Assembly: GCA_041500865.1 (NCBI GenBank)
Contig: JBGQMY010000003.1
Span: 1-64,000, forward strand
Length of the DNA: 64,000 nt
Source of the DNA: Candidatus Micrarchaeia archaeon
GTDB taxonomy: Archaea; Micrarchaeota; Micrarchaeia; Anstonellales; J096
Reading direction: 5' to 3'
Below, piece by piece: positions 18,338 to 20,824 of the stretch. The notes under the pieces were generated by a model. The model was not told the origin of the DNA. It searched no databases and saw only the letters and a program-made list of their open reading frames with translations. How positions within the stretch are numbered: position 1 is the first letter of the stretch; every line of letters starts with the position of its first letter. The position numbers were made by a program, and so were the translations under genes.

Positions 18338-18402
18338 GCCTTGTTTGAATCAGCTTAAAAAAGAAAGAACTGGGTATCAAGAACACCTGCTTGGTTATTC
18401 TG

Positions 18403-19488
18403 TCATACGGCTAATTCCTTGGCAAATAGCCTATTGAATCTTTCCACGACTCTTTTCCTGAAATTATAGCTATTTGCAAATCTGGCATAAGCAAGCCAGC
18501 CTTCCAGGCTTTTCACTATTTCTTCCCTGTTCATCTCTCCTTTATCGCATTTCCGTTTGAACATGTCAAGGCGCTCCCAGATTCTTCTGGCATTGCTCTT
18601 CTTGAGAAGCCGGTACCCATGAAAAATCCTGAAGCCAAGAAATGCTATGCCCCGTTCCAATGGAATAATGCTGGACTTTTCAGGATGGAGCCTTATCTTG
18701 AGCCGGTATGCCAGAAACTCGCTTATTTCAGCGTTCCACATTTCAAGCATTTTCCTGTCCCTGTGCAGAATCACGAAATCATCCACATAGCGGATGTAAT
18801 ATCTGGCCCCAAGCCGCTCCTTTGCAAAATGGTCGAATCCGTTCAGGTATAGATTGGCAAAGAATTGCGAGGTCAGGTTTCCAAGGGGCATCCCTTTCCC
18901 ATGAACTTCAGCTTTGTGGTTTGCCAATATCATTCTTACCAATTGCATAATATCCGGATCCTTTATTTTACGGCTAATCATCTCCAATAGGATTTCATGT
19001 TCAACTGTCGCAAAATAATGCAGAATGTCCGCCTTGAGGGCATATCCGCAGCAAACGGATTCTTCATCGCTAGGCTCTTTTTCTGCTTTTGGCTTGCAGA
19101 AAGAGACCGCGCGCATGAACCGCTCCAGTCTCCGTATCGCATTATGCGTTCCCTTGCCTTTCCTGTTGGCAAATGAGTCAAAGATGAAATCCTTTTCAAA
19201 AATGGGCATTATGACGTTGCATAATGCATGGTGCACAACGCGGTCCCTGAAATGGGACGCGCTTATTTTTCTGGTCTTTGGGTCCCTTACGAGGAATACA
19301 GTTGGCGGGCGAGGCGAATAGGCAAATGCCTTCAGCTCGGATTCCAATTGCCTGAGATTATTTTCAAGATTGGATTCGAACTCAATTACATAATCCTTCA
19401 GCGTTTTCCTTTTTCTGGCTTTCTGAAATGCAAGCTTAAGGTTTTCATAGGAGCAAACCTGCGGATAAAGATGCCTGTAGGATTTCAT
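18403..19488 (-). CDS. DGR reverse transcriptase
   Basis: FRDRVVHHAL, KGKGTH, LKADI..YF, GMPLGNLTSQFFANLYL (SQ typical of DGR RTs), YIRYVDDF, FLG; no endonuclease domain. Confidence 0.95.
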   Translation of the reverse strand: MKSYRHLYPQVCSYENLKLAFQKARKRKTLKDYVIEFESNLENNLRQLESELKAFAYSPRPPTVFLVRDPKTRKISASHFRDRVVHHALCNVIMPIFEKDFIFDSFANRKGKGTHNAIRRLERFMRAVSFCKPKAEKEPSDEESVCCGYALKADILHYFATVEHEILLEMISRKIKDPDIMQLVRMILANHKAEVHGKGMPLGNLTSQFFANLYLNGFDHFAKERLGARYYIRYVDDFVILHRDRKMLEMWNAEISEFLAYRLKIRLHPEKSSIIPLERGIAFLGFRIFHGYRLLKKSNARRIWERLDMFKRKCDKGEMNREEIVKSLEGWLAYARFANSYNFRKRVVERFNRLFAKELAV

Positions 19489-19515
19489 GGGTTTCGCCAA
19501 GCGCACAGATAAATG

Positions 19516-19779
19516 CCCCTAGGGTGCAAGCCCAAGTCATTCCGAACGCATTGGACGGCCTGTAGTTCGCGTTGACGTTCTGCCTGTTGTTGCCGTTGTT
19601 GTTGACGTTGCGGACCAGAAGGCCTCAAGAGTAACCCGTCTGCCACAATGGCACTTTCGTGCCAACACCGCCGCTTCACGCTTTCAATCCATGATTTACT
19701 CAATGTCGCGGCTGAATCCCATGTCTGGCTTTAACCAGCACTGCAGACAGGTGTGTGGCCTAGGCTTGCACCCTAGGAA
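19516..19779 (-). ncRNA. predicted DGR template RNA
   Basis: 15-bp perfect inverted repeat 19518-19532/19763-19777, extended by G-U pairs on the minus strand; internal GAAA tetraloop hairpin. Confidence 0.7.
19536..19624 (-). repeat. DGR template repeat (TR)
   Basis: GGCCTTCTGGTCCGC-AAC-GTC-AAC-AAC-AAC-GGC-AAC-AAC...; ungapped match to 20042-20130. Confidence 0.95.
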
Positions 19780-19803
19780 TAGGGAAAAGGATGGAAAGCT
19801 TAT

Positions 19804-20715
19804 TTAAAGCGCTTTCCCTACCGCATCCAGGAATTCCCTGATTGGCGCTACGATCTGGGCGTCGATTATGCCAGGCATCCTGCCAACAGCGCTTACAGCC
19901 CTATTATATGCGGCTTTCAGCTCATCAGCCGAGATGCCGGGCACTTTGATAATCGTCTCTTTTTCAGCCGGTTTTCCTGACTGAACATTAGAGGCAAGAA
20001 GCGCCTGGATTTTTTCGGTGTCCCCTTCGGGGACTTCCAACGCCACCCCGAACGCACCGGACGGCCCGAAGTACGCGTAGACGCCCTGCCTGCCGTAGCC
20101 GAGGTCGTCGACGACGCGGACCAGAAGGCCCACATATGAAGAACCATTCAGCCTCCAAAGATATCTTGCATCCGGGCTTTGCGGCACCTTGTCTCCATGC
20201 GGAACGCCTGTTTCCTTATGCGGCATGTACAAGCCATCAGGACCTGGGAATTCTGGAACCGGTATCAGCCTGTCTTTTGAAATGTCCAAAACCATTGAAT
20301 CTCCGTCTTTCTGGAAATCTTTTGAGGTTAGACCCAGTGCCACAAGCGCAACGTTCTTTTCGCCCTTATAATCCCCTGTTGTCGGCAAAACTATCCTTGA
20401 ACCGTCTCCTGCGGAAAAGACTATCTCCTTTCCCAGTCTAACGCCTGGCTTTTCATAGGCGATTGAGGCGTCAACAGCGAAAGGCGTCATTGGAACCAAG
20501 CTTCTCCATGTCGCTCCAACGTTAAGCGCAACATCCGCTGTGTTATGGGATATGACTAGGCAATTGGTTCCATGCACATTGTTGAATTCCTCAACTAAAG
20601 GATGGGCATCAAAAAGCTTTGTTGTTCCGCTGTTCCTTAGAATCAGTATGTTCTTCTTTTGTCCGTTAGCCTCTAACTTTATCAGTTCCTTTCCAGCAAT
20701 TTGGATTTGTGACAT
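19804..20715 (-). CDS. DGR target protein (303 aa), internal variable region
   Basis: codons ~196-225 (GLLVRVVDDLGYGRQGVYAYFGPSGAFGVA) form the VR. Confidence 0.9.
   Translation of the reverse strand: MSQIQIAGKELIKLEANGQKKNILILRNSGTTKLFDAHPLVEEFNNVHGTNCLVISHNTADVALNVGATWRSLVPMTPFAVDASIAYEKPGVRLGKEIVFSAGDGSRIVLPTTGDYKGEKNVALVALGLTSKDFQKDGDSMVLDISKDRLIPVPEFPGPDGLYMPHKETGVPHGDKVPQSPDARYLWRLNGSSYVGLLVRVVDDLGYGRQGVYAYFGPSGAFGVALEVPEGDTEKIQALLASNVQSGKPAEKETIIKVPGISADELKAAYNRAVSAVGRMPGIIDAQIVAPIREFLDAVGKAL
20020..20034 (-). promoter_or_regulatory. DGR post-VR homing hairpin
   Basis: GTCCCC-GAA-GGGGAC 7 nt 3' of the VR. Confidence 0.75.
20042..20130 (-). repeat. DGR variable repeat (VR)
   Basis: 20 mismatches to TR in 89 nt, all at TR A positions. 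Confidence 0.95.
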
Positions 20716-20824
20716 ACGATATATTGGGAACCAAAGGATTTAAAAAACACACCTTTTAACACAAGATTACACATAGATGCCGCTGTTAGAAAAACTAATA
20801 AACCTACCCCTAACATAAGCCTAT

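Follow-up and report, generated by a model that had tools for sequence, protein, structure and literature searches.

In the window (that is, the whole stretch of 64,000 nucleotides analysed in this work), the region between a DGR target gene and its reverse transcriptase (RT) encodes an RNA whose inner domain matches the Rfam family RT-16 and whose template repeat (TR) is enclosed by a closing helix, P0; this helix and the internal stem P2 are both conserved and co-vary among related elements, and the locus carries no recognisable Avd. These features suggest that the RNA itself probably initiates the synthesis of its DNA copy, with no need for the customary helper protein. We propose, with moderate confidence, that it represents the template RNA of a clade of DPANN DGRs lacking Avd, in which the cDNA would be self-primed from an invariant A and would stop at P2, without any contribution of Avd.

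Organization of the DGR Locus

The target gene, the variable repeat (VR), the target hairpin, the TR, and the gene encoding the RT all lie on the minus strand of the window:

19804..20715, minus strand: DGR target gene, 303 aa, belonging to no Pfam or NCBIfam family
20042..20131, minus strand: VR, the 90-nt run matched to the TR
20020..20034, minus strand: target-site hairpin (6-bp stem, GAA loop), located within the target gene immediately 3' of the VR
19539..19625, minus strand: TR, ending in an IMH*-type GGAAU, with U19539 opposite A19756
18403..19488, minus strand: DGR RT, 361 aa from the ATG

The direct repeat formed by TR and VR covers 109 nt with 73% identity, and within the 90-nt run all 21 mismatches (21/21) fall at TR adenines, in a scan that admitted mismatches only at such positions. 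The IMH pair consists of GGAAU in the TR and GGGGU in the VR, the latter followed on its 3' side by the GAA-loop hairpin, and about 78 codons of the target gene remain 3' of the VR. The RT matches Pfam RVT_1 (3e-17) and, when compared with bRT (8ub7_A), its best solved relative, it aligns over residues 8-355 of 367 with an E value of 7.4e-48; as judged from this alignment, it is a full-length bRT homologue of the DGR type. The closest relatives of this RT are found in Micrarchaeota MAGs.

The first-pass annotation had placed the TR about 180 nt from the target stop and the end of the 3' arm of the inverted repeat about 30 nt before the RT start, and both distances are in agreement with our measurements: the former amounts to ~179 nt, the latter to 29 nt if the RT starts at the ATG at 19488, or to 11 nt if it starts at an upstream GTG (the bRT alignment of the window RT begins at residue 8). 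The TR lies ~50 nt from the ATG. The sole ORF in the gap (19485-19703, minus strand, 72 aa) is the TR itself read in the VR frame, and it has no Pfam match.

The source genome comprises 1.04 Mb in 36 contigs and is 92% complete. Low-depth contigs from four sediment metagenome runs were aligned to 18400-20720: those of X2 and X3 span the VR without differences, and the low-depth X4 contigs differ along the whole target gene and represent a related strain. A TATA-like TTTAAATA box at 19801-19808 (minus strand), which shares bases with the stop codon of the target gene, precedes the 5' arm of P0 by 23 nt; the distance would suit an archaeal promoter with its start at the arm, and the spacing is not conserved in the relatives.

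The Inner RNA Domain and Its Distribution

The structured RNA noted in the first-pass annotation is not a new one, since its inner domain is already deposited in Rfam, with a score above the gathering score of the family:

19626..19777, minus strand: match to Rfam RT-16 RNA (RF03019), 62.4 bits (cut-off 50), E 4.6e-9, full model 1-158

By this full-length match the inner domain is RT-16, of which the source genome carries a single copy. The family is one of the motifs RT-1 to RT-19 detected near RT genes by Weinberg 2017 (PMC5737381), where, as far as the main account goes, RT-10 alone was tied to a DGR and the remaining RT motifs were left to speculation. The published RT-16 model stops at the TR and draws its 5' end as a local hairpin; containing neither the TR nor the 3' arm, it missed the closing helix P0, which, together with its covariation, is new relative to that model.

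Relatives of the RT were collected by scanning one genome per species, which yielded 62 loci; these belong to Micr-, Woese-, Pace-, Nano-, and Aenigmatarchaeota, apart from a few in bins with a bacterial label. RT-16 reached the cut-off in 56 of the 60 loci scanned (19/20, 19/20, and 18/20), the misses being L008, L024, L053, and L060, and L038 and L061 being left out for having less than 200 nt upstream. As in the window, the match covers the full model and the RT gene adjoins it, as the family description says. The RNA is located upstream on the RT strand in 55 of these 56 loci (the exception is L003), and its 3' end adjoins the TR and lies 91-201 nt from the RT start, except in L001 and L007. 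A TR/VR pair with adenine-only mismatches was detected in 45 of the 62 relatives, and most of the others lack upstream sequence. Rather than a rare "minimal subtype", the layout is the standard one in a large DPANN clade.

Some loci depart from this organization. In L003 (1453-1603, minus strand) RT-16 is opposite to the RT strand and 1.4 kb upstream, an inverted arrangement of the RNA module; L034 harbors two RT-16 copies (1534-1732 and 2725-2882), each with its own TR/VR pair; in several other loci (L014, L017, L019, L056, L058, and L062) one TR matches two VRs in adjacent target genes. L001:767-1528 is probably an IS insertion into a DGR, on the basis of an ORF labelled by eye. In the sample of the phylum RT-16 has a patchy distribution, being present in 19 of 151 genomes, in 8/27 and 7/46 genomes of two other families, and in 0/5 of the other genomes of the family of the window, which fits a horizontal spread of the element.

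A Co-Varying Helix Enclosing the Template Repeat

The closing helix and the strand that continues from it into the core are formed by the following elements:

19756..19779, minus strand: P0a, 5' arm of the closing helix, whose last base is the invariant A19756 (alignment columns 20-31 with 591-600)
19753..19755, minus strand: CAC linker between P0 and P2 on the continuous strand, 3 nt, with a nearly invariant C and an invariant A
19516..19539, minus strand: P0b, 3' arm of the closing helix, beginning at the last TR base

The inverted repeat that had been noted around the TR was recovered with arms at 19518-19539 and 19756-19777 (each of 22 nt, separated by 216 nt, with 86% complementarity overall and a perfect core of 15 bp), and its extension through G-U pairs is found in the MFE fold, where 19516-19539 pairs with 19756-19779 over 24 positions with one C.A mismatch. 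Taken by itself, the fold of this single sequence is modestly above chance (z = -2.19; 3 of 100 shuffles are as stable); the decisive support for P0 comes from the comparison of relatives.

The comparative set included 55 RNAs, i.e., the window and 54 relatives, after dropping L003 (strand) and L015 (anchor motif missing). An unconstrained duplex search with long flanks gave over-extended duplexes and was replaced by anchored tests, in which the register of the arms was counted outward from the conserved junctions, namely the base that precedes ACA and the one that follows AAU. The same anchor rule was applied to cognate and non-cognate arms, and a second rule, which misregistered L016, L017, L021, L035, and L039, was rejected. 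Over nine anchored positions in the 55 loci, cognate arms paired at 7.71 positions vs. 6.13 for non-cognate ones, and at least eight of the nine positions were paired in 58% vs. 15% of cases. The mean free duplex energy of cognate and non-cognate arms was -23.9 vs. -17.2 kcal/mol. The cognate 3' arm ranked best in 12/55 loci and within the top six in 33/55, even though arms are common to relatives.

Covariation was counted on a MAFFT alignment (A1, 55 rows), using as structure the fold of the window minus its TR-internal pairs. In the inner, junction-proximal helix of P0, nine of the ten pairs changed on both sides and 88.1% of the cells are paired. At the junction, 30 rows have a C-G pair, 24 have U-A, and one has another combination, and this junction pair switches type at least eight times on a tree of 25 RTs, each of at least 300 aa; the neighboring pairs are distributed as G-C 38 / A-U 11 / G-U 2, G-C 28 / G-U 21 / A-U 6, and G-C 31 / A-U 15 / G-U 6. 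The frequency of G-U pairs implies that the constraint acts on the RNA of this (minus) strand. For the whole structure, none of 500 shuffles reached the observed pairing or covariation, and sliding the partner by 1-3 columns lowered the pairing from 79.3% to 30-41%. All 55 rows have A-U as the pair joining the A of ACAC to the U of AAU; being invariant, this pair and the linker cannot co-vary, so that the alignment can neither prove nor disprove their pairing. The idea that a closing stem encloses the TR, for which the first-pass annotation had indicated RNA covariation among the closest RT homologues as the check, is therefore supported by the 55 rows, in which both P0 and P2 are conserved and co-varying.

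The outer half of P0 is less uniform. Outside the Micrarchaeota subgroup it is only 49% paired in the register of the window, and in the Woese/Pace group the 5' arm bears a bulged apical insert at this position. The inner end is sharply placed: nearly all loci have P0 starting precisely on the final base of the TR, the TR-VR homology stops 0-4 nt into P0b, and in 30 of 43 loci the VR has a fixed GG where the TR has AA.

Two other roles for these sequences were considered and discarded. A bulge-helix-bulge structure for processing or circularization at P0 is not in agreement with the fold, which, inspected by eye, is a near-perfect helix without such geometry. A pairing of the conserved AUUCA/AUACA strand with GGAAU was also rejected, as its U/A variation does not track IMH* in the alignment, again inspected by eye.

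Internal Stems

The RT-16 core lying between the linker and the TR contains the following elements:

19743..19752, minus strand: P2a, 5' strand of the 10-bp stem (helix 3, 98.4% paired)
19634..19643, minus strand: P2b, 3' strand of the 10-bp stem, ending 9 nt before the TR
19721..19741, minus strand: P3, local stem-loop (helices 4-5)
19713..19720, minus strand: conserved single strand, A-rich in relatives, with several invariant columns
19670..19712, minus strand: P4 domain, GCCGC/GCGGC stem plus an AGUA/GAA internal loop (sarcin-ricin-like; helix 6, 96.4% paired)
19649..19664, minus strand: P5, GAAA-loop hairpin, variable in relatives (helix 8, gap-rich and 65% paired)

The 10-bp stem, the GCCGC/GCGGC stem, and the GAAA-loop hairpin had all been recognized from the sequence of the window, and each is present in the MFE fold. 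Their conservation, whose lack among related DGRs would have counted against the first-pass annotation, is not the same for all of them: P2 (with nine of its ten pairs co-varying in the 55-row alignment) and the GCCGC/GCGGC stem are conserved like P0, and the GAAA hairpin is not. As for the internal loop of P4, the part of the JAR3D report (PMC13085918) considered here gives as sarcin-ricin candidates loop 8 of RT-10 and, weakly, loop 9 of RT-16.

Avd and Other Accessory Proteins

The absence of a visible avd, for which a genome-wide HMM search had been indicated as the check, was confirmed within the limits of a genome that is 92% complete: PF05635 gave no match at E ≤ 1, and no Avd-like ORF flanks the element. 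The ORFs near the element in the window belong to unrelated families or to none, and no accessory gene was found among them; an accessory gene, be it avd, HRDC, MSL, or CH1, is typical, and not universal, in DGRs, and neither the PF05635 search nor the nearby ORFs revealed one here. Since Avd is poorly conserved according to Wu 2018 (PMC5758913), a negative Pfam search is no proof of its absence.

The relatives give a similar picture. PF05635 gave no hit in four of the five other genomes with related loci; the positive one contains two copies, which lie ~13 kb and ~45 kb away from its two copies of RT-16 or are placed on a different contig. Of the 151 genomes sampled from the phylum, 19 have RT-16, 14 have PF05635, and five have both; thus 14 of the 19 RT-16 genomes lack PF05635 at E ≤ 0.01, at least 13 kb separates the two wherever both are present, and within family f6 they occur independently. 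An all-against-all BLASTP of 921 ORFs within 3 kb of the 62 loci revealed no recurrent small or accessory protein, and the recurrent ORF clusters other than RT and target families are antisense to the RT. In a Micrarchaeota genome, the PF05635 genes L064:1480-1881 and L063:1426-1836 are strong matches (four-helix-bundle, Avd-family) located at a great distance from any RT, and one of the two is wedged between the B and D genes of an A-type ATP synthase.

DGRs without Avd have, as such, already been published: in the survey of Wu 2018 (PMC5758913), 29% of the DGRs have no accessory gene, and Architecture A accounts for 75 of 372 DGRs, with no avd reported elsewhere in those genomes. The target-TR-RT order without an accessory gene seen in the window is shared with Architecture A and with the Nanoarchaeota (DUSEL4) DGRs (PMC4372165, PMC5758913). 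The latter also possess, according to Paul 2015 (PMC4372165), IMH/IMH* of the GGGGU/GGAAU type and a GRA-loop hairpin inside the target gene, as observed here. A first difference is that the parts of these two papers considered here describe no RNA structure flanking the TR. A second one concerns the gap between target and RT, whose small ORFs were called Avd-like by Paul 2015 on pI and size only, whereas in the window this gap is occupied by the RT-16 RNA. In the literature covered, neither a link between RT-16 and the TR nor the co-varying closing helix nor a permuted arrangement of retron type was found.

Comparison with the RNA of the Bordetella Phage BPP-1 DGR

The best described system for comparison is that of BPP-1 (Rfam RF03022 Phage_DGR, formerly RT-10; PDB 8ub7 series), in which Handa et al. 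(preprint 10.1101/2023.10.23.563531) report a solved duplex that joins sequences on the upstream and the downstream side of the TR. The two RTs are homologous over their full length, and the core elements of the two RNAs are colinear:

Primer strand: in BPP-1, Sp47-56 with TR118-129, A56:U118; in the window, P0a, with A19756:U19539, both invariant
First template base: in BPP-1, G117; in the window, the adjacent A of the TR
Linker: in BPP-1, 2 nt; in the window, 3 nt
Stop duplex: in BPP-1, Sp59-70 with avd369-379; in the window, P2 as the putative counterpart
Beyond the stop strand: in BPP-1, a short stem-loop and the unpaired A80 and A81; in the window, P3 and the conserved single strand (A-rich in relatives)
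From stop duplex to TR: in BPP-1, 8 nt; in the window, 9 nt
RT-binding stem: in BPP-1, a sarcin-ricin-type loop at the 3' end; in the window, P4 with its AGUA/GAA loop
Avd-binding stem-loop: in BPP-1, directly 3' of the TR; in the window, none, only the 3' arm lying beyond the TR

The two systems differ in that the core is 3' of the TR in BPP-1, in a 140-nt spacer, and 5' of the TR in the window, and in that both the Avd-binding stem-loop and the avd gene are missing in the latter. With respect to the cPRT Stop of Handa et al., the position of P2, the following stem-loop P3, and the A-rich strand would fit that element, but both strands of P2 are upstream of the TR. The BPP-1 spacer scores 104.7 bits on RF03022, and no match to this model was found in 19300-20200 at E ≤ 10, so that the homology of the two RNAs rests on the order and spacing of their elements only. 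Moreover, compensatory mutations in the BPP-1 stop duplex are reported in the preprint not to have restored activity, and the pairing logic may thus not transfer simply. For Avd-bearing DGRs and five archaeal genomes, the analysis of the preprint was confined to 40 nt on the upstream and 100 nt on the downstream side of the TR, a range that would not reach P0a.

By analogy with BPP-1, the RNA of the window would be a circular permutation of a BPP-1-type RNA, with its new ends at the site of the Avd-binding stem-loop. The more far-reaching idea that RT-16-type RNAs in general are permuted BPP-1-type RNAs, on which the RT would act with the RNA alone and would prime from the 2'-OH of the invariant A, is put forward as a tentative suggestion, about which we are rather more doubtful than convinced.

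Comparison with Retrons

The ncRNA of retrons (msr-msd) is closed by the a1/a2 repeats, and its branching G lies beside the a1/a2 stem. The RNA of the window resembles it in having terminal inverted repeats, a conserved purine after the 5' arm, and a template whose 3' end abuts the 3' arm, the order of the elements being 5' arm, purine, structured RNA, template, and 3' arm. However, its RT falls in the DGR group (the retron RT model scores 43.5 bits on it, against a cut-off of 235), the conserved base is an A in 55 of 55 rows and not a branching G, and the product would presumably be meant to rewrite a VR. The description of this locus as a retron-like closed RNA is thus acceptable as far as topology is concerned (5' arm, invariant purine, template against the 3' arm); the element is not a retron, its RT being closest to bRT.

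A Possible Mechanism and Its Alternatives

On the basis of this anatomy, we suggest the following scenario. The transcript would run from P0a through the invariant A, the CAC linker, the RT-16 core, and the TR to P0b, and P2 closes, inside the core, a domain holding the stem-loop, the A-rich strand, and the sarcin-ricin stem. P0 would clamp the 3' end of the TR against A19756; the RT would bind the RNA and start the cDNA on the template base beside the A-U pair, so that priming would come from the RNA itself, in the retron fashion, from the invariant A. The TR would then be copied with errors at adenines until the RT stopped at P2, 9 nt before the 5' end of the TR, and cDNA synthesis would need no Avd. 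The priming from the invariant A, the role of P2 as a stop, and the lack of need for an accessory protein are all inferred.

The explanation that competes most directly with part of this scenario is that the RNA is as proposed and an accessory protein is nevertheless required, either a counterpart of Avd that has diverged beyond the reach of Pfam or a factor of the host with its gene elsewhere, in which case the RNA does not replace Avd. We regard this as somewhat unlikely, and as the alternative to be taken most seriously: five of the 19 RT-16 genomes carry PF05635 genes elsewhere and the source genome is incomplete by some 8%, whereas 14 of the 19 gave no PF05635 hit at E ≤ 0.01, the two features are independent within family f6, the PF05635 copies examined lie in unrelated contexts such as that between ATP synthase genes, no small ORF recurs within 3 kb of the 62 loci, and the place of the Avd-binding stem-loop of the phage is empty. 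Less probable, and unlikely in our opinion, is that P0 serves only as a clamp, defining the RNA ends, favoring stability or folding, or acting as a stop or positioning duplex like the cPRT Stop, and that priming occurs elsewhere, from another part of RT-16, a nicked target, or a separate primer. Duplexes joining sequences upstream of the TR to others downstream of it were indeed predicted in 207 of 278 Avd-bearing DGRs and named a stop element in the preprint of Handa et al., and the invariant A-U pair yields no covariation. P0a, however, is ~130 nt upstream of the TR and not beside its 5' end, so that it cannot block the RT there; the place of the stop is held by P2, 9 nt before the TR as compared with 8 nt in BPP-1; and the start of P0 coincides, in nearly all loci, with the final base of the TR, where the phage RNA has its template:primer duplex.

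A further alternative, which we consider very improbable, is that the functional folds are two local hairpins, i.e., the P1 hairpin of the Rfam model and another one located 3' of the TR, with the long-range complementarity as a by-product of a duplicated palindromic binding site or part of a riboswitch-like toggle hiding the RT start region. The proximal part of the 5' arm can indeed form P1, which belongs to the curated Rfam model, in 34 of 55 loci, and most loci have no more than 0-12 nt between the end of the 3' arm and the RT start. The full-length MFE fold contains P0 (at least six of eight pairs) in 35/55 loci and lacks it in 20/55, partly because of registers mis-set by the anchor rule. 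In 47/55 loci P0 exceeds P1 and the 3' hairpin taken together in stability (medians of -23.9 vs. -15.7 kcal/mol), the 3' hairpin having a median energy of only -3.5 kcal/mol. Moreover, the two junction-proximal pairs of P0 fall outside P1 and the first of them co-varies (C-G in 30 rows, U-A in 24), and in the window and its Micrarchaeota relatives the loop of P1 is the complement of the middle part of the 3' arm rather than an identical sequence. Because of its stability over P1, its presence in the MFE folds, the covariation of the junction outside P1, and this loop complementarity, P0 is, on comparative sequence grounds, a real helix, and P1 may be either a placeholder formed co-transcriptionally or the second of two states in a switch.

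The locus suggests a function for the orphan Rfam family RT-16, in addition to providing the strongly co-varying helix missing from its published model. The question that it addresses is how reverse transcription starts in the DGRs that have no accessory gene (29% of those surveyed in Wu 2018, PMC5758913), for which it would offer a concrete and small model of Avd-independent self-priming, made of an RNA of ~265 nt and one protein of 361 aa; such a two-component system would be attractive for engineered targeted mutagenesis. If the permutation reading were true, the core geometry solved for one phage DGR would be ancient and modular, and the priming of DGRs and that of retrons would be mechanistically linked.

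Simple Repeats in the RT Genes of the Relatives

Long simple repeats, consisting of runs of 8-12 G or C or of (GA) repeated 6-27 times, occur inside the RT gene in 30 of 63 loci (L004, L016, L028, L030, L031, L033-L047, L049-L052, L054, L055, and L057 among the relatives), and none of these tracts is in the window. All but one are located at two sites (~aa 133-152 and ~aa 177-211), both of which are insertions of the window RT relative to bRT, the remaining one being at aa 253 in L055; elsewhere in the loci only four such tracts were detected. Of the 51 full-length matches, 23 show a break in the RT frame, which in 18-19 cases falls at a tract of this kind, and the RT then resumes in another frame; three RTs carry tracts in frame. 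This looks like an ON/OFF phase variation or a slippage control of the DGR RT; assembly error at homopolymers may also account for it.
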